DNA of 64,000 nucleotides, taken from the sequence record NC_047770.1. The stretch is one strand, 5' to 3'. Source of the stretch: Escherichia phage ESCO13. Positions within the stretch are counted from its first letter, which is position 1. Each line of letters opens with the position of its first letter. The translations under genes were made by a program, and so were the position numbers. Of this stretch, positions 51,339 through 63,504 are shown piece by piece. The notes under the pieces are model-generated. The model was not told the DNA's origin. It was given only the letters and a program-made list of their open reading frames with translations, and did not search any database.

Positions 51339-51518
51339 ATGGCACGTTTAGCAGATCATGAAATCTTTAAACCTATTCTGAACCACTATGATGAACTTAA
51401 AGCAGTGTTGGATTGTTATAGAGAGGATGAAGAACGTTTGGAAGTCAATCTTAAGATAGTTCTGATGAAAGCTTTTCAAGACGGGCAAGCTAAAGTTTTA
51501 GAAGGCATGAAAAAATGA
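51339..51518 (+). CDS. hypothetical protein
   Basis: Start at MARLADHE after RBS AAAGGAG. Confidence 0.45.
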   Translation: MARLADHEIFKPILNHYDELKAVLDCYREDEERLEVNLKIVLMKAFQDGQAKVLEGMKK

Positions 51519-52057
51519 GAATAACTGATGAATATGTATTCTTCTTTTCACATAAAGATGTGTTTAGTAATTGGTATATTGCACCCTTTACAGAAACTGA
51601 ACCAGGTTACAATGAGACTTTCTGTTGTGTTGAGCAATATATGATGTGGCGTAAGGCTTTGCTGTTCAAGGATCATGCGATTGCAGCAGCTATCCTTGAT
51701 CACTCAACTATACGTGACAACGAGAGGAAACAAGCATACTACAAACGTATGGGTCGAGCGGTATCTGGTTTTAATAATGATATGTGGGAAGAGAACCGTG
51801 AGCGTATTGTTATGCGAGGCTTATGCTTGAAATATGTACAGAATCCAGATTTGTATGCAGACTTACACCTTTACCAATACAAAACGTTTGTTGAAGCAAG
51901 TCCTTACGATAAGGTTTACGGTATTGGAATGGGAATGTATGAACCAGGGGTGCTAAACCCTGCTACCTGGAAAGGGCAGAATCTTTTAGGAAAATATCAT
52001 AATAAACTGATCGAAATACTTTTCCCAGACAAAATACCGCAAAGACGATATTTGTGA
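51515..52057 (+). CDS. NADAR/YbiA-like (DUF1768) domain protein
   Basis: 180 aa; FFFSHKDVFSNWY ... CVEQYMMWRKALLF ... YGIGMG pattern characteristic of the NADAR family. Confidence 0.65.
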   Translation: MRITDEYVFFFSHKDVFSNWYIAPFTETEPGYNETFCCVEQYMMWRKALLFKDHAIAAAILDHSTIRDNERKQAYYKRMGRAVSGFNNDMWEENRERIVMRGLCLKYVQNPDLYADLHLYQYKTFVEASPYDKVYGIGMGMYEPGVLNPATWKGQNLLGKYHNKLIEILFPDKIPQRRYL

Positions 52058-52113
52058 TATTTTAACTTTTTTCATTTTTAGAACAAAGGTGTCACTTTGT
52101 AGCACAGAAATAA

Positions 52114-52148
52114 GGCTCCTACAGCACCGTAGAGAGCCTGTTATTTTG
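52114..52148 (+). terminator. rho-independent terminator ending the plus-strand block
   Basis: GGCTCCTAC-AGCACC-GTAGAGAGCC followed by TGTTATTTTGT. Confidence 0.5.
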
Positions 52149-52296
52149 TCCTATACAAACCCTTGTCTTTTTCAGTTTGCATCACTAGGATTCGATCTGA
52201 GTGGGTTCCTGAAGGTTTACCAATAAGATTAAAGGTTATATCAAATTCCCACTACCTATTATCTCAAAAATCCCTCAAATTATTTAAACTTTTTAA

Positions 52297-52480
52297 GAAT
52301 TTACAAAAGTGAAAGTTGAAAACCAAAATTTAAAGTTTAGGAAAATTATCTTAAAATGTCAGATACAAAACAAAACTCAAAAGTCAAGGAAAATTTTAAA
52401 AATTTTGCGCGCCCACAGTATTTAAAGTTTTTTTGCTTTTACAAAAATGAAAGTACAAAAGCAAAATTTAAAGTTTACAA
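52297..52480. repeat. AT-rich iteron-like repeat zone
   Basis: About seven copies of (G/T)AAAGT(T/C/A) with A-tracts; two ~40-bp imperfect direct repeats (TACAAAAGTGAAAGTTGAAAACCAAAATTTAAAGTTTAG and TACAAAAATGAAAGTACAAAAGCAAAATTTAAAGTTTAC). Confidence 0.45.
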
Positions 52481-52497
52481 AAATTTTTATGCAGGTG

Positions 52498-52606
52498 AGA
52501 ATGAGAAGAGTTCTCATATGGAAATGCAAATGATAATGATTCGCATTTAAGTTTATAAATGAGATTGATTCTTATTTAATAAGGTAAATGATAATCATTC
52601 TCATTT
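52498..52606. promoter_or_regulatory. array of four phased 21-bp Fur-box-like palindromes
   Basis: Boxes start at 52498, 52528, 52557, 52586 (29-30 bp period): gAATGAgAagagTTCTCATat, AAATGATAATGATTCGCATTT, AAATGAGATTGATTCTTATTT, AAATGATAATCATTCTCATTT; the last contains AATGATAATCATT, the core of the Fur consensus GATAATGATAATCATTATC. Confidence 0.45.
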
Positions 52607-52865
52607 AGAGAATGACGCGCAGGGGCGGTGTTTGTCTCGCGCTCCCGTGTCCCCTCGCCATGTAATAAGAATAACAGATCCAGCCAGGAAAGCAAGCGAT
52701 TATTTTATCTTTACATTTCTTTACAAATATAGAGCGCCCAGCCTACCGGCGATCAACCTTCCAACCAGTGCCCCCTGGTATGTTAGCCCCGCCTTTACGC
52801 CGTGGGGTGGCGCTTCCTCTTCTGTATGTAAAACAGTATAAGCCCGATCCCTGGGCTTGTCAAGA

Positions 52866-53132
52866 TTATTTTTTGTTTTCTTGCCAGGATAGGACACCTA
52901 ACCAAAAATACATATCGCCCCGCGCCCCTGGTGGTATCTTGCTTTCCCCGCCGCCACTGCAAGCCCATAGATAACCATTTGCGAACGTATCAAAATGATC
53001 TATCTCTTCCACCTTATGATCGCCCAGGTTGAGAACGGTTTCAACCTTTAAGCCCGTTGCGCTTGCTACCTGGTGCACCGTGCCGCCTTGCCAGCCCAAT
53101 GAGTGCATAAGGTGTAATGTAGTATTTGTCAT
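52866..53132 (-). CDS. hypothetical protein in the GC-richer island
   Basis: 88 aa; preceded on the minus strand by its own promoter, 5-prime hairpin and RBS. Confidence 0.5.
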   Translation of the reverse strand: MTNTTLHLMHSLGWQGGTVHQVASATGLKVETVLNLGDHKVEEIDHFDTFANGYLWACSGGGESKIPPGARGDMYFWLGVLSWQENKK

Positions 53133-53154
53133 GGTATCGCCCTTTCTTTGATGT

Positions 53155-53207
53155 GCGCCCTGGTTGGCGCGGTAGAAAGATGATAGCCCTTTCTTTTATA
53201 TATAGCA
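53155..53207 (-). promoter_or_regulatory. minus-strand promoter TTGCTA-N17-TATCAT plus 5-prime hairpin
   Basis: -35 at 53207-53202, -10 at 53184-53179, hairpin GCGCC-AACCAG-GGCGC (53170-53155), then RBS AAAGGG and ATG at 53132; divergent from the first plus-strand cassette. Confidence 0.45.
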
Positions 53208-53241
53208 AGCAAAAAGAAAATAAAAAAGATTGAAAAAGTGA

Positions 53242-53299
53242 TTGACGTTCGCCAGGTGGCGGCATAATATTTACCACGTAGGGCGGCAATGGTGCCGCT
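53242..53299 (+). promoter_or_regulatory. promoter-hairpin cassette 1
   Basis: TTGACG-N17-TAATAT-TTACCACG-TAGGGCGGCAATGGTGCCGCT. Confidence 0.6.
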
Positions 53300-53319
53300 C
53301 ATTATTTGGAGTTAAAATC

Positions 53320-53517
53320 ATGGCAACATTGCACATTGTGGCGAAAGCTGGACAAATAAACGTGGTAGTAAACGGTTTTACTGAGTTCAGTCATCCCCAG
53401 GATGATCATGAAACGGTTTTATCTTTCATTGATTCACTGTTAGAAATGGGAGTAATTACAGAAGACCAGCACGGTACAAAATGCAAGCGCGTTAATCAAA
53501 TTGCAGGAATAGAATAA
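53320..53517 (+). CDS. small hypothetical protein
   Basis: 65 aa MATLHIVAKAGQ...; ATG after RBS GGAG, not the upstream TTG of the track ORF. Confidence 0.55.
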   Translation: MATLHIVAKAGQINVVVNGFTEFSHPQDDHETVLSFIDSLLEMGVITEDQHGTKCKRVNQIAGIE

Positions 53518-53523
53518 AAACTA

Positions 53524-53582
53524 TTGACAACAAACAACAACCTGATAAGATGTATCACATAGGGCGGGAAGTGGTTTCCCGC
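53524..53582 (+). promoter_or_regulatory. promoter-hairpin cassette 2
   Basis: TTGACA-N16-TAAGAT-GTATCACA-TAGGGCGGGAAGTGGTTTCCCGC. Confidence 0.6.
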
Positions 53583-53607
53583 TCGTAACAGAAGAGAGAT
53601 TATCATC

Positions 53608-53880
53608 ATGGCATCATATAGCGCAACAATGATCGTAGCTGGCACAACTGGTAAACCTATGAGCGGTGGCGGATCTTTCGCTAATATCAATATTGACGGG
53701 CGTTTATCCCTGGACGCAGCGATCGCTATTGCACGGGAAACATTTAAGAAAGAATGTAATTTCAACAAGCAAGATTATCTCGGTTTCGCTATTGAAAAAA
53801 CCGCGCGCTTTGTTGATTATAAAAGCCCGAAAATGGTTGATACTACACTAAAAGCGCAAGATGTAGCGTTTTTGCTTTAA
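53608..53880 (+). CDS. small hypothetical protein
   Basis: 90 aa; RBS AGAAGAGAG. Confidence 0.55.
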   Translation: MASYSATMIVAGTTGKPMSGGGSFANINIDGRLSLDAAIAIARETFKKECNFNKQDYLGFAIEKTARFVDYKSPKMVDTTLKAQDVAFLL

Positions 53881-53883
53881 GGC

Positions 53884-53939
53884 TTGACATTAACGAATAA
53901 TTTGTTAATATGTTACATAAAGCGGGAATAGTTCCCGCT
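53884..53939 (+). promoter_or_regulatory. promoter-hairpin cassette 3
   Basis: TTGACA-N16-TAATAT-GTTACATA-AAGCGGGAATAGTTCCCGCT. Confidence 0.6.
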
Positions 53940-53956
53940 ATTTGTAAGGTGGTAGA

Positions 53957-54214
53957 ATGTTTTACATCAAATTAAAAGGTCACGTGATCGCGTTCAAAGA
54001 TAACGCTTTTTACAGATTAGCAAAATATGCGTTAATACATCCCCACTATGTTTATATAAGGAGGCGTGATGAAATAAATATCTTTGATCAAACAACATGC
54101 GAGAACATCGAGATCCGCAAGGTTGGCGTACGTGATTATCGTACATCTTTCTACCCTTGCAAGGATTCAGCAAGTCTTTTTAAAGTATGCCAATTGTTGA
54201 AAAAAGGTGGTTAA
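53957..54214 (+). CDS. small hypothetical protein
   Basis: 85 aa; RBS AAGGTGG. Confidence 0.55.
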   Translation: MFYIKLKGHVIAFKDNAFYRLAKYALIHPHYVYIRRRDEINIFDQTTCENIEIRKVGVRDYRTSFYPCKDSASLFKVCQLLKKGG

Positions 54215-54215
54215 T

Positions 54216-54773
54216 ATGGGCCGCGAATATGTGATCCAGTCTTGGGTAAAACATGAAGCAGATGATCCGCGCATCATTCCCGATCATCTTATCGATGAAT
54301 CCACGGGATATAGCGGTGAGCAAATAGGTAACAGATTAGCACGTAGTAACGGCAACGTAAAAGCGCGTTATGTGCGCCCTGGCTGGCTGGCAAATGGTAA
54401 CGCTGATTTATCCAGTGCGGAAGATGCGAGCGACGGCGCGAAAGATAATCCTTTGTACAAAGTTGATCCGGCTTTTCGTGTCCTGGATGAATACCCCAGC
54501 AAGATAGCGGCGCTCGATCAGGCCCTGGAAAGTAAGCGCATCACCTGGACCGCTTACAACATGGCAAAAAACGTACTTGATGGTAAATTGATTCAAGCTG
54601 AAAGAAAATTAGCCAAAATTGCAGCCATAGCCCAGGAGGAAGACGAGGAGACAACGGAAGAGGAAGAGTACGAAGAGATCCCGCCGTTGTTGTGTGTTGA
54701 TGCTTTTCCTGATTATCAGCCGACAGAGGAAGAAAAAAGGATCGCACTAGAAAACTTTGAAAATAGTCTTTGA
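54216..54773 (+). CDS. hypothetical protein with acidic C-terminal region
   Basis: 185 aa from the ATG at 54216 (RBS AAAGGTGG); second cistron of cassette 3; EEDEETTEEEEYEE stretch. Confidence 0.55.
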   Translation: MGREYVIQSWVKHEADDPRIIPDHLIDESTGYSGEQIGNRLARSNGNVKARYVRPGWLANGNADLSSAEDASDGAKDNPLYKVDPAFRVLDEYPSKIAALDQALESKRITWTAYNMAKNVLDGKLIQAERKLAKIAAIAQEEDEETTEEEEYEEIPPLLCVDAFPDYQPTEEEKRIALENFENSL

Positions 54774-54827
54774 CATATCGCCGCCACTGGCATAATATTT
54801 ACCACGTAGGGCGGCAATGGTGCCGCT
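54770..54827 (+). promoter_or_regulatory. promoter-hairpin cassette 4
   Basis: TTGACA (overlapping the upstream stop)-N17-TAATAT-TTACCACG-TAGGGCGGCAATGGTGCCGCT; near-identical to cassette 1. Confidence 0.6.
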
Positions 54828-54855
54828 CATAGTGAAATTATGCAAGAGGCTTACA

Positions 54856-54951
54856 ATGATTAATAAAGAAAATAGCTTGACGGTTGGAACGATTAACGCT
54901 ATCATTCTAGCCGTTCCATTTTGGATTGTAGTAGCGGCTATTATTTTCTAA
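54856..54951 (+). CDS. hydrophobic micro-protein (31 aa)
   Basis: MINKENSLTVGTINAIILAVPFWIVVAAIIF; RBS AGAGG 6 nt upstream. Confidence 0.4.
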   Translation: MINKENSLTVGTINAIILAVPFWIVVAAIIF

Positions 54952-54959
54952 AAATATTC

Positions 54960-55020
54960 TTGACAACGTTTTTTAATCTGATAAGATGTATCACATAGGG
55001 CGGCGGAATACTTCCCCGCC
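54960..55020 (+). promoter_or_regulatory. promoter-hairpin cassette 5
   Basis: TTGACA-N16-TAAGAT-GTATCACA-TAGGGCGGCGGAATACTTCCCCGCC. Confidence 0.6.
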
Positions 55021-55041
55021 AAAACAAAAAAGGGTAACACA

Positions 55042-55404
55042 ATGAGCAAGCAAATCAATACTATCATGTTAAACCTGGTATCCTTCCGCGATGATATGAA
55101 AAATTTACCACGTGAAACGGTTGATATTCATGTTTCAGCTTATCGCGCCCTTATTGACATGTTACCGCTAAAACGTGATCAACATGCCGCTAACATGATG
55201 CTTAATGCTATGCTTAAAAAGATGATTCAAACGGATCTCATCCTGGCGTATGAGTATCAAGGGCGCTTATATGCTACTTACAACAAGGCGGTACCTGGTC
55301 TGGGAAGTACCGAAGAGTTGCACGGCTTAAACCTGGATCAGAACACTTGGGATAGTATGCGCCGCGTTATGGTATGGGCCGAAAGCGGTAAAATTTACGA
55401 ATAA
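55042..55404 (+). CDS. hypothetical protein
   Basis: 120 aa. Confidence 0.55.
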   Translation: MSKQINTIMLNLVSFRDDMKNLPRETVDIHVSAYRALIDMLPLKRDQHAANMMLNAMLKKMIQTDLILAYEYQGRLYATYNKAVPGLGSTEELHGLNLDQNTWDSMRRVMVWAESGKIYE

Positions 55405-55409
55405 AACGG

Positions 55410-55466
55410 TTGACACTGTTTAAAATTCTGGTATAGTTTATCACGTAGGGCGGCAATGGTGCCGCC
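55410..55466 (+). promoter_or_regulatory. promoter-hairpin cassette 6
   Basis: TTGACA-N16-TATAGT-TTATCACG-TAGGGCGGCAATGGTGCCGCC. Confidence 0.6.
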
Positions 55467-55486
55467 AACAATAAAAGGTTAACATC

Positions 55487-55666
55487 ATGACTATCATTGC
55501 AAAAACTGAGATTATAGGTTTAGATTCGATCCTCCTGGCTTATGAGGAAACTTTAAAAATGTATGTAGTGACCTATGGTGATTATGTGCGTGAATACGAA
55601 TACATTGATCTTGCTTTCGAATGTTACATTCGCCAGGTCAATAAAGCCTATAACGATTATCGTTAA
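55487..55666 (+). CDS. small hypothetical protein (59 aa)
   Basis: MTIIAKTEIIGLDSILLAYEETLKMYVVTYGDY...; below the track cutoff. Confidence 0.45.
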   Translation: MTIIAKTEIIGLDSILLAYEETLKMYVVTYGDYVREYEYIDLAFECYIRQVNKAYNDYR

Positions 55667-55685
55667 AAGTTTTAGTCTTATACTA

Positions 55686-55738
55686 TTGACAATGAGTGAT
55701 AGTATAAGCATAATAACTTTTATCGGGAATACTTCCCA
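55686..55738 (+). promoter_or_regulatory. promoter-hairpin cassette 7 (variant)
   Basis: TTGACA-N17-CATAAT ... CGGGAATACTTCCC. Confidence 0.5.
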
Positions 55739-55763
55739 CTAACCAAAAAAAGAGAGTAATATC

Positions 55764-56129
55764 ATGGCTATTAATATCAATGTTTCCTCTTATGCTACCC
55801 TGGCTGACACGGCTAAAATTGAATTATCCAGCATTGAGGCGGTGCATATTAGCGCCCGTCGTTGGTTTCAACAGTCCTACGGTAACACATATTTTTCTTT
55901 AATGGTTGACGTTGAGATCGGCGGTAAACTGATCGAGGTGGTTAACGTTCCGTTTCAATATGGTTATGGTGATCATTTTGATACCGTCGCCCTGGAAGAA
56001 TTTAGCAAGGTTATTAATATGGAAGGTAAAGAGTTTTCACGCGGCGCGTATCTTTCCCGTTTTTGCCGTGACAATGGGATCACTGTATACAGTCATGCAA
56101 GCGATGTTAAACGTAAAAAAGATTTATAA
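55764..56129 (+). CDS. hypothetical protein
   Basis: 121 aa; RBS AGAGAG. Confidence 0.55.
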   Translation: MAININVSSYATLADTAKIELSSIEAVHISARRWFQQSYGNTYFSLMVDVEIGGKLIEVVNVPFQYGYGDHFDTVALEEFSKVINMEGKEFSRGAYLSRFCRDNGITVYSHASDVKRKKDL

Positions 56130-56135
56130 AAAGCA

Positions 56136-56194
56136 TTGACAGCACGAATAAAAAGAGTAAACTGTATTACATAGAGAGCGGGAACACTTCCCGC
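56136..56194 (+). promoter_or_regulatory. promoter-hairpin cassette 8
   Basis: TTGACA-N16-TAAACT-GTATTACA-TAGAGAGCGGGAACACTTCCCGC. Confidence 0.55.
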
Positions 56195-56218
56195 CTCACT
56201 GAAAAAGAGATTAACATC

Positions 56219-56458
56219 ATGGCTAAATCAAAAATGTTCTTAGGTCACAAAAATAAAACTCATTGGAATGTAAGCCTTTGGATTAATAACGACGAATCAT
56301 TATATCGGTTGGCGAAAGAATTTATCGCCGCTAATACTAATCGTAATGATGCTGCCCGTGATATGATGTTATTCCTGGAACAAACTGGACAAGATAAAAC
56401 TCCAGACGGTTTCAAGTATAGTAAAACTGCAATCCGTGCCGCGATGGTTGGAATGTAA
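56219..56458 (+). CDS. small hypothetical protein
   Basis: 79 aa. Confidence 0.55.
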   Translation: MAKSKMFLGHKNKTHWNVSLWINNDESLYRLAKEFIAANTNRNDAARDMMLFLEQTGQDKTPDGFKYSKTAIRAAMVGM

Positions 56459-56467
56459 TAAAAACAG

Positions 56468-56526
56468 TTGACAACGTTTAAAATTAGTGTAAGATGTATC
56501 ACATAGGGCGGGAAATGGTTTCCCGC
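56468..56526 (+). promoter_or_regulatory. promoter-hairpin cassette 9
   Basis: TTGACA-N16-TAAGAT-GTATCACA-TAGGGCGGGAAATGGTTTCCCGC. Confidence 0.6.
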
Positions 56527-56549
56527 TCACAACAGAGAGATTAAAGATT

Positions 56550-56777
56550 ATGGCTATCAATATTGTTCGCGTATCCGGCACCGTTGGCTATTCCCAGGTT
56601 GTAGCAGTTGTAACAAACAAAAAGATTAATGATGTATGTGAGATCTTGAATAAGTGGGCTATTGCTAATTTTGGAGAATATGCAAGCGTCGAGTACATCG
56701 AATCCTACCAGGTGCCGACCATCAGCCTAACCGATCTCAACGTTGATCGCCTGTTATGCCTGGATGAATTAAACTAA
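56550..56777 (+). CDS. small hypothetical protein
   Basis: 75 aa. Confidence 0.55.
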   Translation: MAINIVRVSGTVGYSQVVAVVTNKKINDVCEILNKWAIANFGEYASVEYIESYQVPTISLTDLNVDRLLCLDELN

Positions 56778-56784
56778 AATAATA

Positions 56785-56841
56785 TTGACAAGATAACTAA
56801 AATCAGTAAAATGTAATGCATAGGGCGGCAATAGTGCCGCT
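56785..56841 (+). promoter_or_regulatory. promoter-hairpin cassette 10
   Basis: TTGACA-N16-TAAAAT-GTAATGCA-TAGGGCGGCAATAGTGCCGCT. Confidence 0.6.
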
Positions 56842-56863
56842 CATAGTAAGAGGGATTATCAAA

Positions 56864-57079
56864 ATGGCTAATATCCGCACACTGTTAAAAAATGCAAGTC
56901 AAGTTTTATTTTCAGATGACGAGTATTTCAATAAAGACATTACAGGCGTGAAAAATTTAAAAGACGTTAAGGATGTAATAGGTATTCGAGGATCTTTACG
57001 TAAAGGTGACTACTACGGCAATAAAGTACAATATAAATTAAATCAGTCTTATGATTTTACTTTGACAATTATTTCATAA
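56864..57079 (+). CDS. small hypothetical protein
   Basis: 71 aa from MANIRTLLK (RBS AAGAGGGA). Confidence 0.55.
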   Translation: MANIRTLLKNASQVLFSDDEYFNKDITGVKNLKDVKDVIGIRGSLRKGDYYGNKVQYKLNQSYDFTLTIIS

Positions 57080-57085
57080 AACCGC

Positions 57086-57147
57086 TTGCAATCTTAATAA
57101 AATAAAGTAAACTGTATTACATCAAGGCGGCGGAATGGTCCACCGCC
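57086..57147 (+). promoter_or_regulatory. promoter-hairpin cassette 11
   Basis: TTGCAA-N16-TAAACT-GTATTACA-TCAAGGCGGCGGAATGGTCCACCGCC. Confidence 0.55.
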
Positions 57148-57171
57148 TAACAAAGAGAAGAGGAAAACATC

Positions 57172-57339
57172 ATGATCACTTTCGCTACCCGTGAAGCCGC
57201 TCGCAACGTTGCCCGTAAAGTTAACGCCGCCAACCTGGGCGCTACGCTTAAAGCCCCTGTAAAAGATGAATCAGGAAAATGGATCTTCCCTGGTCTGCGT
57301 CATGCTGACAAGTTAGGTACTTTAAGCCTTAAAAAATAA
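57172..57339 (+). CDS. small basic protein (55 aa)
   Basis: MITFATREAARNVARKVNAANLGATLKAPVKDESGKWIFPGLRHADKLGTLSLKK; below the track cutoff. Confidence 0.45.
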   Translation: MITFATREAARNVARKVNAANLGATLKAPVKDESGKWIFPGLRHADKLGTLSLKK

Positions 57340-57342
57340 TCG

Positions 57343-57380
57343 TTGACTTTTCGTTATAGCGCCTTATAATGGGCGCTATA
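57343..57380 (+). promoter_or_regulatory. consensus promoter TTGACT-N16-TATAAT inside a 9-bp inverted repeat
   Basis: TATAGCGCC-TTATAATG-GGCGCTATA (57355-57380) brackets the -10 hexamer; operator-like. Confidence 0.5.
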
Positions 57381-57413
57381 GAGAAGAGAAACCACTACTA
57401 ACAAGGAAACATC

Positions 57414-57635
57414 ATGATCACTTTCGCTATTGTCGCCGTTGTCGCTGGTCAGGTTTACATAAACGATACATTCACCACAGAAGACAAGGCCGCAGGAGAC
57501 ATAACCGCCGTTTACAATGAGTGCAAGGCAGTAGAAAGGATGTTAGCGCCTTGTATGCTAATGAGTGAACGCCAGGACGGGATAACAGTATTTACTAACA
57601 TTGAAACAGGGTACCAAATGGTAGTAACAAAATAA
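57414..57635 (+). CDS. small hypothetical protein
   Basis: 73 aa; shares the MITFA N-terminus with the preceding ORF. Confidence 0.55.
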   Translation: MITFAIVAVVAGQVYINDTFTTEDKAAGDITAVYNECKAVERMLAPCMLMSERQDGITVFTNIETGYQMVVTK

Positions 57636-57638
57636 AGC

Positions 57639-57695
57639 TTGACACGGATTTAATTTTTAGTAAACTGTTACACGTAGGGCGGGAATAGTTCCCGC
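57639..57695 (+). promoter_or_regulatory. promoter-hairpin cassette 13
   Basis: TTGACA-N16-TAAACT-GTTACACG-TAGGGCGGGAATAGTTCCCGC. Confidence 0.6.
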
Positions 57696-57714
57696 TCAAA
57701 AAGAGAGAAAGACC

Positions 57715-58068
57715 ATGAAAGCACAAAATGCAATTAAAGAGTACATCCTTGCCGCTATCGATTTTAATGATTACGGTATTACAACCGAAAAAGAGAAGAT
57801 CGCGGAATTGATGCGCCGTTTTAATTCCGAGTACTGGTACCCTGATAACCAATCACGTTTTAATTATAGTATTGTTAAAGCACTTGCATCATGGTTACAA
57901 GGCTTGCCATCAGATATCAATATCGCTTTCGAATATTGGGAAATTGATCGCCTGTTAACATCCTGGGGATACATTAAAGAGAATAGCAGCGATGATAAAA
58001 TCCAACGAGAAAGGGAAAATTATTGGCTTTATATTGCAGGCGTGATCCTTGCTTGCTCTTATGAATGA
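57715..58068 (+). CDS. hypothetical protein
   Basis: 117 aa. Confidence 0.55.
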   Translation: MKAQNAIKEYILAAIDFNDYGITTEKEKIAELMRRFNSEYWYPDNQSRFNYSIVKALASWLQGLPSDINIAFEYWEIDRLLTSWGYIKENSSDDKIQRERENYWLYIAGVILACSYE

Positions 58069-58074
58069 TAAACC

Positions 58075-58128
58075 TTGACAATTTTACAAAACAGTTTAAA
58101 TTAACAATATAGCGGCAATGGTGCCGCT
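58075..58128 (+). promoter_or_regulatory. promoter-hairpin cassette 14
   Basis: TTGACA-N16-TAAATT-AACAATAT-AGCGGCAATGGTGCCGCT. Confidence 0.55.
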
Positions 58129-58147
58129 CATATGAAGAGGAAACAAA

Positions 58148-58294
58148 ATGAATACATCTAATCGCGCAGAAAAAATTCAATCTTCCAAGATCCGCAAGGC
58201 CTGGAACGAGGAAGTGATCCGCAAAGGCGACAAGCGCAATAAAACAAAGCGCGGGAAGAGTGACAAATATAATTGGATGGATTTAGAGGATTAA
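58148..58294 (+). CDS. small basic protein (48 aa)
   Basis: MNTSNRAEKIQSSKIRKAWNEEVIRKGDKRNKTKRGKSDKYNWMDLED; RBS GAAGAGGAA. Confidence 0.45.
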   Translation: MNTSNRAEKIQSSKIRKAWNEEVIRKGDKRNKTKRGKSDKYNWMDLED

Positions 58295-58303
58295 CATAAC
58301 AAG

Positions 58304-58329
58304 GGGCGCACCAAGCGCCCTTTCTTTTT
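58304..58329 (+). terminator. rho-independent terminator
   Basis: GGGCGC-ACCAA-GCGCCC followed by TTTCTTTTT. Confidence 0.6.
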
Positions 58330-58350
58330 ACATGTAGAGGATAAACAAAG

Positions 58351-58536
58351 ATGACTTTAAGCGAGCTTAAAACAGCCTACAACGCAACGTTAAAAATAGC
58401 CGTGCGTTACCGTGACGAATACGGTTTTATTGCGCAGGGCGTGATCCTGGGCTTTTCTGACGATGGTTTGATCTATGTTGATGCACATCACAATAAGGTT
58501 AAACCTGAAAACGTCATTAGCATAAAATATCTTTAA
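58351..58536 (+). CDS. small hypothetical protein
   Basis: 61 aa; RBS GAGGA; no own promoter seen (read-through?). Confidence 0.5.
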   Translation: MTLSELKTAYNATLKIAVRYRDEYGFIAQGVILGFSDDGLIYVDAHHNKVKPENVISIKYL

Positions 58537-58542
58537 AAGTGG

Positions 58543-58600
58543 TTGACACCATAACCGGACCTGTTAAACTGTATTACATCAGGCGGGGAATAGTTCCCAC
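58543..58600 (+). promoter_or_regulatory. promoter-hairpin cassette 15
   Basis: TTGACA-N16-TAAACT-GTATTACA-TCAGGCGGGGAATAGTTCCCACC. Confidence 0.55.
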
Positions 58601-58620
58601 CATACAAAAAGGTAAATATT

Positions 58621-58827
58621 ATGATCACCGCAAAACAAGAAAAAATCATTATCGACGTTGCAGCCGTTGCCGCTATTGCTATTATTGGATCTTATTATGA
58701 CACCGCGCGTCCTTCCTCCTTGCATGAGGTCGCCGCCGTTGCATCAGTTGGCGTACTGTTTTACGTTGGTAAACGCTATTTATCACCAATGATTAACAAG
58801 CTGACACCGTGGAAAAATAAAGGTTGA
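58621..58827 (+). CDS. small membrane protein
   Basis: 68 aa; hydrophobic stretches IIIDVAAVAAIAIIGSYY and VAAVASVGVLFYV. Confidence 0.55.
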   Translation: MITAKQEKIIIDVAAVAAIAIIGSYYDTARPSSLHEVAAVASVGVLFYVGKRYLSPMINKLTPWKNKG

Positions 58828-58883
58828 TCCTGTTTTATATTGTGTTATAGTTATCGTGTAGGGCGGCAATGGTGCCGCGCCCT
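58824..58883 (+). promoter_or_regulatory. promoter-hairpin cassette 16
   Basis: TTGATC (overlapping the upstream stop)-N16-TATAGT-TATCGTG-TAGGGCGGCAATGGTGCCGCGCCC. Confidence 0.55.
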
Positions 58884-58898
58884 TTTGAGGATGCAATC

Positions 58899-59183
58899 AT
58901 GAGTAAAGCTAACACCGTGCTAATGTTTTCCCTGATTAATGATTCCGCTTACTTGTCCAACATGACGCAGGAGGGTAACACATTAACGGCAACATTCACC
59001 AATAAGCTTGACCGGGTGATCATCGTCTCACTGAAAACAGTTAGTAAAGGCTTTTACTCGTTAGCTTATCATTGGATCACCGATACCGATGAGACAAGCC
59101 AGGACTATAGCACCCCTTTCCCTGAATCAATGGCACGGGAGGTCATCGCCGCCGTTGTAAATGATGGTTTGTTTACTGCATAA
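58899..59183 (+). CDS. hypothetical protein
   Basis: 94 aa from MSKANTVLMFSL. Confidence 0.55.
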   Translation: MSKANTVLMFSLINDSAYLSNMTQEGNTLTATFTNKLDRVIIVSLKTVSKGFYSLAYHWITDTDETSQDYSTPFPESMAREVIAAVVNDGLFTA

Positions 59184-59201
59184 AATAATTTAGAAAAAGG
59201 C

Positions 59202-59258
59202 TTGCAATCATTTTGAGATAGTGTATATTTAATTCATAGGGCGGCGGGAATAGTTCCC
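59202..59258 (+). promoter_or_regulatory. promoter-hairpin cassette 17
   Basis: TTGCAA-N16-TATATT-TAATTCA-TAGGGCGGCGGGAATAGTTCCC. Confidence 0.55.
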
Positions 59259-59281
59259 AAAGCAAACGAGAGGATTACACG

Positions 59282-59401
59282 ATGAGCAAGTACACAGTAG
59301 AATACACGGTAGAAAATCCGGCAGTATCCGAAGGTAAAAAGATGACATTTGCCATCAGTATAATCGCTTTCGTTATCACTATCTTATCAATCATCTTATA
59401 A
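59282..59401 (+). CDS. micro-protein with C-terminal TM helix (39 aa)
   Basis: MSKYTVEYTVENPAVSEGKKMTFAISIIAFVITILSIIL; RBS GAGAGG. Confidence 0.4.
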   Translation: MSKYTVEYTVENPAVSEGKKMTFAISIIAFVITILSIIL

Positions 59402-59411
59402 GGTGCGTACT

Positions 59412-59573
59412 ATGAAAACAACAGACATTATCAAAGAGATCGCCCTTGCCGCTGACGTTGAGATCGAGGAAGTGATCGCGCTCAACCTTACAGAAAACGA
59501 TCTGCGCAACTATGAAGCGGAAAGCGTGAAAGCAAGCGGCGCGGTCCTGGCATATAATCCGGCTAACAAGTAA
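59412..59573 (+). CDS. small acidic protein (53 aa)
   Basis: MKTTDIIKEIALAADVEIEEVIALNLTENDLRNYEAESVKASGAVLAYNPANK; RBS AAGGTG. Confidence 0.4.
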   Translation: MKTTDIIKEIALAADVEIEEVIALNLTENDLRNYEAESVKASGAVLAYNPANK

Positions 59574-59582
59574 GGGGATAAC

Positions 59583-59693
59583 ATGAATCCGAAAGATATG
59601 CAAGCATGGAAAGGGTACGACGATCTAAGCGCCTTGCGCAATAAGTCAAGCCGTAACCTTAGACGGTTGGAAGCAAAGAAAAAGAAAAAATAG
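59583..59693 (+). CDS. small basic protein (36 aa)
   Basis: MNPKDMQAWKGYDDLSALRNKSSRNLRRLEAKKKKK; RBS AAGGGGA. Confidence 0.35.
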   Translation: MNPKDMQAWKGYDDLSALRNKSSRNLRRLEAKKKKK

Positions 59694-59694
59694 T

Positions 59695-59751
59695 TTGACA
59701 AGTCCGCCTAGTCTGATAATATGTATCTTGTAGGGCGGCAATGGTGCCGCT
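59695..59751 (+). promoter_or_regulatory. promoter-hairpin cassette 18
   Basis: TTGACA-N16-TAATAT-GTATCTTG-TAGGGCGGCAATGGTGCCGCT. Confidence 0.6.
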
Positions 59752-59771
59752 CACAAGAAGAGAGAAAAATC

Positions 59772-60056
59772 ATGAAAATCACAAAAAGCCTAACTAATTA
59801 TGCAGCACGTCGCGGATTATGTTTAACCGTTGAAAACTTAGGGAAAGAAGACTTTTTGTGTTTTTGGGAGCTTGAAAATGATTGCGAGTGGATGTTTTCT
59901 TATTCTATCTGCGAAGATCAAAACGGTTGTTTGTTAACCTGGCGCGGTAATATCTATTTACCGGAAGAAATTAAAGAAGAGTTACCAGGTACGATCATGA
60001 CAGAGAGACAGCTTAAGGAAGTGATCAATTTTGTAGGGCAAAACATTAAAAAATAA
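59772..60056 (+). CDS. Cys-rich hypothetical protein
   Basis: 94 aa from MKITKSLTNYAARRG; several Cys. Confidence 0.55.
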   Translation: MKITKSLTNYAARRGLCLTVENLGKEDFLCFWELENDCEWMFSYSICEDQNGCLLTWRGNIYLPEEIKEELPGTIMTERQLKEVINFVGQNIKK

Positions 60057-60057
60057 T

Positions 60058-60119
60058 TTGACAGTAGGCAAACAACGTAGTAAAGTTTATTACATAGAGC
60101 GGCGGAATGGTCCACCGCT
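60058..60119 (+). promoter_or_regulatory. promoter-hairpin cassette 19
   Basis: TTGACA-N17-TAAAGT-TTATTACA-TAGAGCGGCGGAATGGTCCACCGCT. Confidence 0.55.
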
Positions 60120-60141
60120 CACAACAGAAGAGAAACAAATC

Positions 60142-60312
60142 ATGATCCCGACTATGTTTTATGTATCGCGCAAAGGTCACAATATTTTTTGGTCTGAAGA
60201 TTTAAATGAAGCTATGACGTTTGCCCGTGATCGTGTTGCTATCGGTGGCGTTAATATCACCGTGACCGATGAAAACGGCATTGAATACTATAACGGCGAT
60301 GATGAAGAGTAA
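60142..60312 (+). CDS. small hypothetical protein (56 aa)
   Basis: MIPTMFYVSRKGHNIFWSEDLNEAMTFARDRVAIGGVNITVTDENGIEYYNGDDEE. Confidence 0.5.
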   Translation: MIPTMFYVSRKGHNIFWSEDLNEAMTFARDRVAIGGVNITVTDENGIEYYNGDDEE

Positions 60313-60318
60313 TCAACA

Positions 60319-60338
60319 AGGCGGGATTAATCCCGCCT
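60319..60338 (+). other. perfect 20-bp palindrome AGGCGGGATTAATCCCGCCT (promoter-less intercistronic hairpin)
   Basis: Preceded by TAATCAACAA; no -35/-10 pair and no U-tract. Confidence 0.5.
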
Positions 60339-60356
60339 ATATTAAAGGGTAATACA

Positions 60357-60494
60357 ATGAAAACTTTCAACGCAACAGCCTCGACAATTGGTTATATTAT
60401 TACAGTGCAAGCCGTGGATCTGGTAGCAGCAGCAAACAAGATTAAAAAGATGATCCCGCCAGGTAGTGAATTTTCCGTTTGGGAAGTAAAATAA
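60357..60494 (+). CDS. small hypothetical protein (45 aa)
   Basis: MKTFNATASTIGYIITVQAVDLVAAANKIKKMIPPGSEFSVWEVK; RBS AAAGGG. Confidence 0.4.
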   Translation: MKTFNATASTIGYIITVQAVDLVAAANKIKKMIPPGSEFSVWEVK

Positions 60495-60497
60495 ACC

Positions 60498-60559
60498 TTG
60501 ACAATAATTTGTTATCTGATAAAGTGTATTACGTAGGGCGGGGCAATGGTGCAACGCCC
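60498..60559 (+). promoter_or_regulatory. promoter-hairpin cassette 21
   Basis: TTGACA-N16-TAAAGT-GTATTACG-TAGGGCGGGGCAATGGTGCAACGCCC. Confidence 0.55.
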
Positions 60560-60577
60560 ATTAATGAGGGTAGAATC

Positions 60578-60682
60578 ATGTTAGAGAAAATTTTCACGGT
60601 TGTAATAGTGGGCCTGGCGTTATCGGTTGGAGTGGTTGCAACTATGGCTAACATGATCCTATCTTCCCACGGTATCGGTTAA
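60578..60682 (+). CDS. hydrophobic micro-protein (34 aa)
   Basis: MLEKIFTVVIVGLALSVGVVATMANMILSSHGIG; RBS GAGGG. Confidence 0.4.
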   Translation: MLEKIFTVVIVGLALSVGVVATMANMILSSHGIG

Positions 60683-60692
60683 GGTGAAACAA

Positions 60693-60908
60693 ATGATCAC
60701 GAACAAAACAGGCAAAACGGAATTTTTACGCGGCTTACAAGTTGGTAAGCCTGAGATCTGGCATTGCACGAAGTCCGCGCATAATGAAATGAAAGATTTC
60801 ACCGCTACTTTACAACGTGTTAAAATATCTATTACGCAGAAAAAAGCCTTATTAGTAGTAGAAAACGAGATCCCGCAAACCATTATTATTGTCGAGCGTA
60901 CAGCATGA
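60693..60908 (+). CDS. small hypothetical protein
   Basis: 71 aa from MITNKTGKTE (RBS AAGGTGA). Confidence 0.5.
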   Translation: MITNKTGKTEFLRGLQVGKPEIWHCTKSAHNEMKDFTATLQRVKISITQKKALLVVENEIPQTIIIVERTA

Positions 60909-61291
60909 AAACAGAAATCATTAACGAAATCATCAACGGCTATAAAGAAGCCTTTATTTTTGCTGAATCAGCAAGGGATCATGAAGGTAATTTTATAGAT
61001 GACATGACTGATTATGATTTTTCAGATCAAGCCCATCAACGGATCGCCCAGGATGTAACAGCCTTTATTAATGCTAATCTTGCCGCTATCTCTGAGGCAA
61101 TGAGCGACGGCGCAACAGCCAACCAGATCGGGAATGATTTACATTTTACCCGTAACGGTCACGGCGTAGGATTTTGGGATCGCCCTGAAATATACACCAC
61201 TAACACGGCGAACCGCCTAACAAATGCAGCTAAGTTTATGCCGAACGTGTCGGCTTACATTGGTGAAGATAATTTGATTTATATTGAATAA
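60905..61291 (+). CDS. hypothetical protein
   Basis: 128 aa; ATGA overlap. Confidence 0.55.
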   Translation: MKTEIINEIINGYKEAFIFAESARDHEGNFIDDMTDYDFSDQAHQRIAQDVTAFINANLAAISEAMSDGATANQIGNDLHFTRNGHGVGFWDRPEIYTTNTANRLTNAAKFMPNVSAYIGEDNLIYIE

Positions 61292-61297
61292 AAAGTA

Positions 61298-61354
61298 TTG
61301 ACACAGATCGCCAGTGTGCTAATATTTACCACGTAGGGCGGCAATGGTGCCGCC
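61298..61354 (+). promoter_or_regulatory. promoter-hairpin cassette 22
   Basis: TTGACA-N16-TAATAT-TTACCACG-TAGGGCGGCAATGGTGCCGCC. Confidence 0.6.
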
Positions 61355-61372
61355 GATAATGAGGAAAATAAA

Positions 61373-61672
61373 ATGGAAACTATCGCTATTGTTACCGTAG
61401 AAAAACTGGTTGTTGGTGATGTGTTCGCGTTAATGGTGCCTAACAGCAGCAAACTGGGCGCTTATGAAGTGATGGACCATAAAAATGAATCATTTGGCGA
61501 CGGTTGCACAATGGCGGTAAAATCCTTAAAGGATGGAATCATCCGCCAGGCTAACTGGCACAAAGGGAATCAAGTCGGTTTAATATCAGCTAATTTCTTG
61601 CCAGAAGAGCAAACGTTAGACCAACTATCAGGCGGTAAGACGTTAGCCGAACTACTGGAAACAGCGATCTAA
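61373..61672 (+). CDS. hypothetical protein
   Basis: 99 aa; RBS GAGGAAAA. Confidence 0.55.
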   Translation: METIAIVTVEKLVVGDVFALMVPNSSKLGAYEVMDHKNESFGDGCTMAVKSLKDGIIRQANWHKGNQVGLISANFLPEEQTLDQLSGGKTLAELLETAI

Positions 61673-61680
61673 TCAACAAA

Positions 61681-61696
61681 GGGGCGGCAACGCCCC
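61681..61696 (+). other. promoter-less intercistronic hairpin GGGGCG-GCAA-CGCCCC
   Basis: Preceded by TAATCAACAAA; no U-tract. Confidence 0.45.
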
Positions 61697-61716
61697 ACAT
61701 CAGAAAGGAAAAGATT

Positions 61717-61953
61717 ATGAGTATTGCAACAGTATTAAACGCCGTTAAAACCGCTGAATCATCCGGCTTGCATGTTGAGCTTATAGATCAACCAGGTGGC
61801 GATCTCCTTGTCCAGGTTTACCCGCCGAAAGTAGGGGATGATTATTATTGGGCTTATTCTGATACGTTCGAACAAGTAGACACGAAAGCGATCACGGCTT
61901 TTATTTTAAAAGCTATTGAAGAAAATAACTTTCATCATAACATCAATCAATAA
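61717..61953 (+). CDS. small hypothetical protein
   Basis: 78 aa. Confidence 0.55.
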   Translation: MSIATVLNAVKTAESSGLHVELIDQPGGDLLVQVYPPKVGDDYYWAYSDTFEQVDTKAITAFILKAIEENNFHHNINQ

Positions 61954-61962
61954 ACCATAAGC

Positions 61963-61978
61963 GGGGCGGTAACGCCCC
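61963..61978 (+). other. promoter-less intercistronic hairpin GGGGCG-GTAA-CGCCCC
   Basis: Same hairpin family as 61681-61696. Confidence 0.45.
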
Positions 61979-62007
61979 ATTAAACGCAATAGGAAGAGGA
62001 TAGACGC

Positions 62008-62292
62008 ATGAAAAACATGATCGCAGTAGTTGCCCTAGTTGTTGGTATTAACGCGCCTGTACTGGCTAATGAGTTGCCAGAATCCATCACGTTAACCGAT
62101 ATCAACGCAGTGAACCGGATCGGTGTTAATTATCGCCTATGCCTTGCCGCTAAAACTTTCCAGGATGGCACAACAGAGTACTACGGATTCGAGGGTATCC
62201 GGTGCGGTGAGCTTGCACGCGACCTTAAGGAAGATCCAGACCTTGAGGCCATACCGATGACCGTAAACGGTAAAGCTTACGTAAGCCGCTAA
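62008..62292 (+). CDS. secreted/periplasmic small protein
   Basis: 94 aa; signal peptide MKNMIAVVALVVGINAPVLA. Confidence 0.55.
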   Translation: MKNMIAVVALVVGINAPVLANELPESITLTDINAVNRIGVNYRLCLAAKTFQDGTTEYYGFEGIRCGELARDLKEDPDLEAIPMTVNGKAYVSR

Positions 62293-62294
62293 CC

Positions 62295-62429
62295 ATGAGA
62301 AAGGTAATCATCACAATGGGGATCGTAGTAGCAACGCTGGCGCTTATTCCCTTCATGGTTGAACATGTGCTGATCAATGTTGTCCTGGTAGTCAGCGACC
62401 TATTAGAAACGGTTGGCAACTGGTTTTAA
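62295..62429 (+). CDS. hydrophobic micro-protein (44 aa)
   Basis: MRKVIITMGIVVATLALIPFMVEHVLINVVLVVSDLLETVGNWF; starts 2 nt after the upstream stop. Confidence 0.4.
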   Translation: MRKVIITMGIVVATLALIPFMVEHVLINVVLVVSDLLETVGNWF

Positions 62430-62438
62430 GATAAATAA

Positions 62439-62468
62439 ACAGGGCTTGCAATAGTCCTGTTTTTTGTT
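62439..62468 (+). terminator. rho-independent terminator
   Basis: ACAGGGC-TTGCAATA-GTCCTGT followed by TTTTTTGTT. Confidence 0.55.
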
Positions 62469-62606
62469 ATACTTATTGAACGGGCGGCACCTGGGAGCAG
62501 GGGAAGATAATCACCGGAAGACCCCGCTATATATATTGATAGCTAACACCTATCAAACAACAAAACATCAAAGAGATAAACTATCAAATCTTTACAATCC
62601 CACCTA

Positions 62607-62664
62607 TTGACACCGGATCACGCTTACATTATTATTTATCACGTAGGGCGGGAATGTTTCCCAC
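62607..62664 (+). promoter_or_regulatory. promoter-hairpin cassette 24
   Basis: TTGACA-N17-TATTAT-TTATCACG-TAGGGCGGGAATGTTTCCCAC. Confidence 0.55.
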
Positions 62665-62683
62665 CTGATTTAGGAGTCATATC

Positions 62684-62917
62684 ATGATCGAACAAATTAA
62701 AAGCACTACACCAAATGTTAACGGTAATGTTTCTCACTTTATCGGGGATAATGAAAGAGGTACACCGTACGCCGCCGTAACCGTTCAACCTAACGGGGAT
62801 TATTGGTTTACCGTGTACGGATCTTACTCTTTTGGACGTTCGGCACATGATAAGATCTTGCAAGTGGTTAAGCCTACTGGGAAGAATATCACAGCAGAAA
62901 AATTTTATAAAAAATAA
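62684..62917 (+). CDS. small hypothetical protein
   Basis: 77 aa; RBS AGGAG. Confidence 0.55.
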   Translation: MIEQIKSTTPNVNGNVSHFIGDNERGTPYAAVTVQPNGDYWFTVYGSYSFGRSAHDKILQVVKPTGKNITAEKFYKK

Positions 62918-62918
62918 C

Positions 62919-62978
62919 TTGCTTTATAGCTCCTGTTAACTTATAGTTATTGCGTAGGGCGAGCAATACAGCAAGCCC
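62919..62978 (+). promoter_or_regulatory. promoter-hairpin cassette 25 (degenerate)
   Basis: TTGCTT-N17-TATAGT-TATTGCG-TAGGGCGAGCAATACAGCAAGCCC. Confidence 0.45.
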
Positions 62979-62995
62979 ACAAAGAGGAAAATAAA

Positions 62996-63364
62996 ATGAG
63001 CAAATCAGCAATTAAAGCACTTGAAAAAGCACAAGAAGTGATCGCAACGTCAACCACTGGCGCAAAGGTTAATCTCGTTGGTTATCTGACAGATGAAACT
63101 ATCCGTAAAAATTGGCGTAATGCTGATTTACTGGCTTGCTTATTGATTAATAGTGTCGCTAATGCTTTCCAGTGTGAAACAGCCGAGAGCCTGGAGGAAA
63201 ACTTGTTTGATAATATGGATCAAGCCATTGAAACCTATATTCAATCAAATTTAGATAGCTGGAACAGTAAAACATGGCCCGACAATTTACGCGATACAAC
63301 TGATCAACTGATCCGCCTTGCCCTGATGGTTGAACGCGATAACGTTCACAACCGCACAAAGTAA
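62996..63364 (+). CDS. hypothetical protein
   Basis: 122 aa; RBS AAGAGGAAA. Confidence 0.55.
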   Translation: MSKSAIKALEKAQEVIATSTTGAKVNLVGYLTDETIRKNWRNADLLACLLINSVANAFQCETAESLEENLFDNMDQAIETYIQSNLDSWNSKTWPDNLRDTTDQLIRLALMVERDNVHNRTK

Positions 63365-63375
63365 GATTATACAAG

Positions 63376-63395
63376 GGGCGCACTAAGCGCCCTTT
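63376..63395 (+). terminator. hairpin / weak terminator
   Basis: GGGCGC-ACTAA-GCGCCC followed by a short TTT; same hairpin family as 58304 and 63940. Confidence 0.4.
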
Positions 63396-63422
63396 AACGT
63401 AAAGAAATGTAAATAATGCGCT

Positions 63423-63459
63423 ATCCCCTATTGACAGGGGATCGGCGTTATATTATATT
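63423..63459 (+). promoter_or_regulatory. sigma70 promoter TTGACA-N17-TATATT with an inverted repeat over the -35
   Basis: ATCCCCT-ATTGAC-AGGGGAT (63423-63442) flanks the -35; no 5-prime hairpin. Confidence 0.5.
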
Positions 63460-63504
63460 TAACTCACTGGCAGCAAACAACGAAACGAAACAAAGGATAA
63501 CACT

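Follow-up and report, generated by a model that had tools for sequence, protein, structure and literature searches.

In Escherichia phage ESCO13, a minus-strand open reading frame of 88 codons, located at 52866..53132 of the window (the whole 64,000-nucleotide stretch of record NC_047770.1 that was analysed), is, judging from comparison with its relatives, a genuine conserved gene of phAPEC8/phi92-like E. coli phages. The explanation that best accounts for this gene, with a probability of about 60%, is that lytic phages of the phAPEC8/phi92/rV5 type carry it as a small accessory gene with transcription of its own, with partner binding as the favoured mode of action of its product. The frame, taken from the list of open reading frames, starts with MTNTTLHLMHSLGWQGG... 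and ends at a TAA stop codon (52868..52866), and it encodes a protein of 9.7 kDa with a pI of 5.9, five predicted helices and the motif LGWQGGTVHQVASATGL. An earlier note on this DNA had described a minus-strand frame of this length with a promoter, a hairpin and a ribosome-binding site upstream, and all of these elements are in place.

The coding status of the frame rests on a match to a known protein family, homologs of the same length, an intact frame in most relatives, low dN/dS values and a confident structural model. The protein matches PHROG 19316 over its full length (E = 2.1e-59), with residues 1-88 aligned to all positions of an 88-position profile. The gene product was found by tblastn in 150 phage records, 144 of which cover at least 80% of the protein, with identities ranging from 100% down to 36–50% in phages of Klebsiella, Serratia, Pectobacterium and Xanthomonas. 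Among 5.8 billion proteins searched, there were 21 homolog clusters, many of exactly 88 aa with identities of 48–89%, and the homologs of the same length were 41–89% identical to the ESCO13 protein. Pairwise dN/dS values (Nei-Gojobori, pairs with measurable dS) were between 0.10 and 0.46 in all informative pairs, and synonymous sites were saturated in the most distant homolog pairs. The frame is, thus, intact and under purifying selection across diverged relatives, as in a protein-coding gene. Its N-terminal threonine tract (53118-53132, minus strand), encoded by ACN repeats, varies in length among homologs (MTNTT, MTTT, MTTTT, MTTITTTTTTT), and all of these changes are in frame. An identical sequence has already been deposited as a “hypothetical protein” (VEcB_223, UniRef A0A494RFN4) and occurs on 62 contigs. 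The gene is an ordinary member of an existing uncharacterised phage protein family and has already been annotated in several genomes.

The gene lies in a 1.25-kb stretch (52058..53310) that breaks a long run of plus-strand early genes. A 1.3-kb query around it matched 145 phage records, with identities of up to 98.5%, nearly all of them from Escherichia phages related to phAPEC8 and phi92, in the genus Phapecoctavirus (Stephanstirmvirinae). The GC-rich island in which the gene had been placed is real, with a GC content of 50.9% at 52610..53175; the window as a whole has 39.6%, and the segment next to the island (52060..52609) 28.5%. A host origin of the island was rejected, as no match to it was found in E. 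coli. An RNA gene under the frame was likewise rejected: a search of Rfam over 51500-54500 at E values of up to 1 gave no match, a focused Rfam search returned just one chance match of 11.9 bits, and the window contains no tRNA or tmRNA. In the rV5 genome paper the region appears as an unexplained “non-coding” box, and the promoter table singles out no promoter for the 88-aa gene. Nothing on the gene, its PHROG or the region was found in the literature searched.

Sequence conservation supports the prediction that the gene has a sigma-70-like promoter of its own. A scan of the minus strand identified a -35 hexamer, TTGCTA (53208..53203), a 17-nt spacer and a -10 hexamer, TATCAT (53185..53180), with a score of 9/12. 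Matches of this quality are common locally, with 17 found in 2 kb versus 5.2 expected by shuffling, and the hairpin in the leader has a folding energy of -11.9 kcal/mol (z = -1.84), with 13 of 200 shuffled sequences folding at least as well. Taken alone, the promoter and hairpin signals are weak and not significant, and the promoter is judged to be real on account of its conservation in relatives rather than its raw score. Sigma-70 hexamers at a spacing of 16-18 nt are conserved in relatives: TTGCTA-17-TAnnnT is kept in Phapecoctavirus, Vequintavirinae and phage Av-05, with TATTAT, TACTAT, TATAGT or TATAAT as the -10 hexamer, and it is present in five loci, including that of Av-05, with differing spacers. 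In Av-05, the spacer and leader are unrelated to those of ESCO13 and TTGCTA-17-TATAAT is still there. More distant relatives carry TTGACT-17-[A/C]ATAAT directly upstream of the gene, with promoter scores of 9-10 of 12. There is no minus-strand gene upstream that could serve as a source of read-through.

The leader hairpin, identified by sequence and folding, consists of GCGCC (53170..53166), the loop AACCAG and GGCGC (53159..53155) on the minus strand, and begins about 3 nt after the predicted transcript start. An identical hairpin is shared by the Escherichia phages and is present in W70, UPEC06 and TSP7_1, Klebsiella phages have a different one (GCCGCCAcggTGGxGGC) at the equivalent position, and none was found in Av-05 and three other loci. 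Stem-loops at the 5' end are known to stabilise mRNAs, as in the ompA leader of E. coli, by a geometry that hinders 5'-end-dependent decay. The hairpin of the 88-aa gene resembles the ompA leader in lying about 3 nt from the predicted 5' end, but it is short (5 bp) and missing in some relatives, and the transcript start from which its position is reckoned is a predicted one. It is followed on the minus strand by a purine-rich ribosome-binding region, AAAGAAAGGG (53140..53149), in which AGGG (53143..53140) precedes the ATG (53132) by 7 nt; relatives have a stronger AGAGGA at the same distance from the start codon. A 17-nt direct repeat of the minus strand, AAAGAAAGGGC[T/G]AT, lies over the ribosome-binding site (53136-53152) and over the -10 hexamer (53183-53199), flanking the leader hairpin. 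It is weakly kept in W70 and could be either a regulatory site or a product of chance.

The divergent orientation of the gene with respect to its plus-strand neighbours recurs in all annotated relatives that were examined, namely Phapecoctavirus, the Vequintavirinae phages W70 and UPEC06, and the Klebsiella phages 05F01 and FBKp34. On the other side of the divergence, the promoter of the first plus-strand cassette (TTGACG-17-TAATAT, 53242..53270) precedes a leader hairpin, GGGCGGCAatggTGCCGCTC, and a gene of 68 codons (ATG at 53311). The earlier note had taken this part of the DNA to be a bidirectional early control region. The promoters are indeed back to back, with their -35 hexamers 33 bp apart, but no shared operator, palindrome or inverted repeat was found in the spacer between them (53209..53241, no strand assigned). 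This spacer is A/T-rich in sequence and, we infer, could serve the two promoters as an UP element.

It had also been suggested that the gene mirrors the design of the plus-strand cassettes. The early promoters of the plus strand form a stereotyped family, with 27 sites scoring at least 10/12 between 46 and 64 kb, most of which are TTGACA-16-TAAGAT-like and are followed about 10 nt later by TAGGGCGG(G/C)AA..TTCCCGCTC and then by a purine-rich ribosome-binding site. This promoter-leader cassette is repeated many times on the plus strand at 53242-63460. The layout of the 88-aa gene is similar, with a sigma-70-type promoter, a GC-rich stem-loop a few nucleotides into the transcript, a purine-rich ribosome-binding site and a short open reading frame, but its promoter (TTGCTA, 17-nt spacer, 9/12) and its unrelated hairpin (GCGCC..GGCGC) place it outside the family defined by TTGACA-16-TAAGAT-like promoters and TAGGGCGG(G/C)AA..TTCCCGCTC. 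The suggested mirroring is, on this comparison, only loosely supported: the gene shares the design principle of the cassettes but is not a copy of one of them. A promoter-hairpin-ribosome-binding site layout is ordinary for early phage genes.

The earlier note had proposed a homology and structure search of the product, and this placed the protein in PHROG 19316 but yielded neither a fold match nor a function. By its full-length profile match and its conserved motif, the ESCO13 protein is a member of this GWQGGT-motif family (related PHROGs 32304 and 33408; VEcB_223, Phi92_gp224, EcG1_192, bas62_0108), from which it shows no difference. Pfam has no model of this family, no structure has been solved for it or resembles it, and no function is assigned to it. 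An exhaustive profile search at E values of up to 1e-3 gave 211 cluster representatives, mostly phage proteins of 80-120 aa. A few long matches were rejected as spurious leucine-rich-repeat matches, and the true fusion partners carry no Pfam domain from which a function could be read. Across 144 members, G13, Q15, G16, G17, T18, H20, Q21 and G27 show a conservation of 90% or more, and the ESCO13 protein has every one of these residues as well as the C-terminal [F/Y]W.G. The family motif is LGWQGGT[V/I]HQVA..TGL, the N-terminal 36 residues (LGWQGGT[V/I]HQVA..TGL.V..IL.L) constitute a widely shared phage domain, and the C-terminal half is variable but keeps [F/Y]W.G. AlphaFold2, run on an alignment of 19 sequences, produced a five-helix model with a pLDDT of 93.5 and a pTM of 0.86, the predicted helices spanning residues 3-11, 19-26, 30-38, 45-58 and 74-86. 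Foldseek found no significant fold match in the PDB (best E value 3.1) and only family members in a viral library. In a profile search of PDB sequences all E values were above 0.3, the matches including HU (0.37) and the XRE-type protein 3b7h (1.1). The model thus predicts, with confidence, an orphan fold for the GWQGGTxHQ protein. No match was found in Pfam (E up to 1), NCBIfam or PADLOC-DB (E up to 1), and the protein fits none of the anti-phage-defence or counter-defence models of PADLOC-DB. By itself, the gene is of little weight, being one more small phage gene without an assigned function, whereas the GWQGGTxHQ domain, with its 211 clusters and its orphan fold, is a tractable target for interaction screens.

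According to the favoured explanation, the host sigma-70 RNA polymerase would start transcription at TTGCTA-17-TATCAT, and the gene would probably be expressed early. The GC-rich stem-loop of the leader would probably protect the 5' end of the mRNA, the purine-rich site would then recruit the ribosome, and the product would be a 9.7-kDa acidic, all-helical protein. Many small early proteins involved in host takeover or counter-defence act by binding a partner. By analogy, the ESCO13 protein may bind a conserved host or phage macromolecule through its invariant GWQGGTxHQ surface, a proposal to which we give slightly less than even odds. Binding to a partner is favoured over binding to DNA because the protein is acidic (pI 5.9, net charge -3, with 64% of 121 family members also acidic) and because the invariant residues, in the 144 members compared, lie in the loop and helix that precede the would-be recognition helix, which is itself variable.

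The most serious alternative, which is nonetheless rather unlikely, is that the protein is a small Cro/XRE-like helix-turn-helix (HTH) regulator of its own promoter and of the divergent early promoter, or that it binds the palindromes downstream. Residues 19-36 (VHQVASATGLKVETILNL) fit, by inspection, the classic A5-G9-I15 pattern, and helices 19-26 and 30-38, with a turn at T26-G27-L28, could correspond to the two helices of about 8 residues and the tight turn of an HTH; the same A-G-hydrophobic pattern is also found in the non-DNA-reading body of HU. The protein is similar in size to the Cro/C1 (XRE) regulators, is likewise all-helical and, like them, is divergently oriented beside early promoters, a position typical of regulators, and the 17-nt direct repeat described above overlaps both the -10 hexamer and the ribosome-binding site. 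Several Cro/XRE proteins are found among the non-significant Foldseek matches, the sub-threshold sequence matches include the XRE-type prophage protein 3b7h (E = 1.1), HTH_26 was detected in 3 of 144 members (best E = 1.1e-3), and single marginal matches to Sigma70_r4, GerE, HTH_23 and HTH_Tnp_ISL3 were obtained among the same members. However, the ESCO13 protein itself matches no HTH family in Pfam at E values of up to 1 and has no significant structural match to the five-helix fold of XRE proteins. It differs from the Cro/C1 regulators in being acidic rather than basic, no operator palindrome was found at its own promoter, and its conserved residues precede the recognition helix rather than lying within it. 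A Cro-like HTH repressor, which had been the first guess, was accordingly downgraded after the fold searches and the calculation of the pI.

The interesting biology of the GC-rich island lies next door to the gene, in candidate RNAs and phased Fur-box-like palindromes. Conservation points to two promoter-driven, highly conserved candidate structured RNAs, referred to here as RNA A and RNA B. It had been noted that the gene is transcribed toward the Fur-like array. This orientation is correct, but two separate promoter-driven, conserved non-coding units intervene.

RNA A is a candidate structured RNA of about 90 nt on the minus strand (52828..52740), recognised by conservation and consensus folding. 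Its promoter, TTGACA-17-TATACT (52835..52863, minus strand), scores 11/12, carries a terminator-like flag and outranks the other minus-strand promoters of this part of the window. It is conserved in all relatives, and its spacer contains a GC-rich hairpin (AAGCCC..GGGCTT), the stem of which differs in sequence between phages without loss of pairing and which could also form the 3' end or stabiliser of the mRNA of the 88-aa gene. GC-rich hairpins between the -35 and -10 hexamers were observed at 52841-52857 and 53249-53262 of the window and in four other loci. A 26-nt core of RNA A, CCCCACGGCG[A/T]AAAGGCGGGGCTAAC (52807..52782), remains invariant across genera, including phages in which the protein encoded next to it has no more than 41-58% identity. 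This core is present in a single copy, limited to phage genomes of about 145-153 kb and essentially absent from bacterial genomes, and RNA A has no match in Rfam or in E. coli. In the consensus fold, two helices are invariant, and a co-varying arm shows an exchange of A-U for G-C. All 20 complete distinct arms form the same bulged hairpin, with length changes in the loop only, and in one lineage (L067) the arm is swapped for a UUCG-capped mini-hairpin. A likeness by eye of this arm (ACCAGG..CAGGUCGGAAGG) to domain IV of the 4.5S RNA of the SRP was rejected, as no Rfam SRP match was found at E values of up to 10. A CCCC:GGGG pseudoknot is possible in RNA A, and its 5' end is purine-rich and Shine-Dalgarno-like, without a start codon.

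The stretch that separates RNA A from the second promoter contains a direct repeat, TGTAAAGAAATGTAAAGA (52708-52725, minus strand), which most relatives share, though not W70 or UPEC06, and which may be a protein-binding site. A promoter-like site (TTGCTT-16-TATTCT, 52695..52668, minus strand) then precedes RNA B, a conserved block of about 50 nt (52661..52612, minus strand). The ends of RNA B co-vary: some phages have the pair AUGGCG/CGUCAU, other phages the pair AUAGCGGG/CCCGCUAU. RNA B ends at the first palindrome, which also resembles a terminator hairpin.

Four palindromes, AATGAGAATnATTCTCATT, lie at 52500, 52529, 52558 and 52587 (52500-52605 of the window), with a spacing of exactly 29 nt. 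They are unique in the 64 kb, in which 0.1 would be expected by chance, and the best of the four differs from the Fur 7-1-7 core, TGATAATnATTATCA, by a single mismatch. In Klebsiella phages and other relatives, RNA B is likewise followed by palindromes of a similar kind. No description of RNA A, RNA B or the palindromes was found in Rfam or in the literature that was searched. The adjacent segment at 52276-52485 is very AT-rich and contains a 72-nt direct repeat at a spacing of 138 nt, with 82% identity between copies and weak promoter-like hexamers in each. The combination of AT-rich repeats, phased palindromes and inward-reading promoters resembles, by analogy, the layout of a replication origin.

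A second alternative is that the gene, the two RNAs and the palindrome array act jointly, the gene supplying, for example, the RNA-binding or origin-binding protein of a single module. The slot directly upstream of the RNA A promoter is occupied by the 88-aa gene in 21 of 39 distinct loci, and the gene is inverted yet still adjacent in one lineage. In ESCO13, its stop codon is 2 nt from the -35 hexamer of that promoter. Against such a module, the gene is missing from 17 of the 39 RNA loci; in 11 of these, the slot is taken by an unrelated 61-aa gene (MENTKVITSETMVTL...) that has a promoter of its own, and the remaining six have neither. Conversely, members of the protein family in Xanthomonas phage XaC1 and in several metagenomic phages have no RNA core within 2 kb. 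In addition, a natural variant has lost the 3' end of the gene together with the RNA core: in a metagenome contig of 5x coverage (L042, 1660-1700), codon ~64 is fused, at a GGGCGC microhomology, to the 3' portion of RNA A, and the deletion removes the 3' third of the gene, and with it the C-terminus of the protein, the RNA A promoter and the invariant core. The co-occurrence counts over the 39 loci rule out an obligate partnership of the gene with RNA A, and a functional module of the kind described is improbable. Given the interchangeable slot and its own promoter, the gene looks accessory rather than an obligate partner of the RNAs.

A more far-reaching possibility, which we consider to be a long shot, is that GWQGGTxHQ represents a previously unrecognised fold and functional class, a compact phage module that is made from its own early promoter and docks onto some universally conserved machinery of the bacterium (RNA polymerase, a nuclease or a defence sensor, for instance). 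Together with the two RNAs and the phased Fur-box-like array, which share its minus-strand islet, it would perhaps form a replication or control hub of rV5/phi92-like phages.

Public annotation of this stretch is contradictory, with different records calling the gene, nothing at all or spurious plus-strand frames, a conflict that the present analysis settles. The vB_Ec-G1 and phi92 records annotate the 88-aa gene, the UP17 record has no gene there, and the Schickermooser record (MK373788) has two plus-strand open reading frames, Schickermooser_00256 and Schickermooser_00257, flagged as “frameshift” with respect to phAPEC8_00257. These plus-strand frames (52632..52841 and 52768..52974) cross a run of 4, 5, 6 or 7 G bases in close relatives; since they are frameshifted there by changes in the length of this run, they are non-coding, and the frames annotated in MK373788 and NC_020079 (phAPEC8_00257; window 52632-52974) are probably spurious. 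The idea that the 88-codon frame is no gene at all, being a chance frame of the kind that GC-rich non-coding DNA within an AT-rich genome can yield at length, or that the plus-strand frames are the true genes, as the UP17 and Schickermooser records might suggest, is very improbable and effectively refuted by sequence comparison, as conservation of the protein extends to homologs of 36% identity, synonymous sites are saturated and dN/dS is far below 1, a confident fold is predicted for the product, and the plus-strand frames are broken at the G-run, a frameshift that the Schickermooser record itself reports. The spurious plus-strand frames (52632-52974) overlap both the conserved RNA and the real 88-aa gene.
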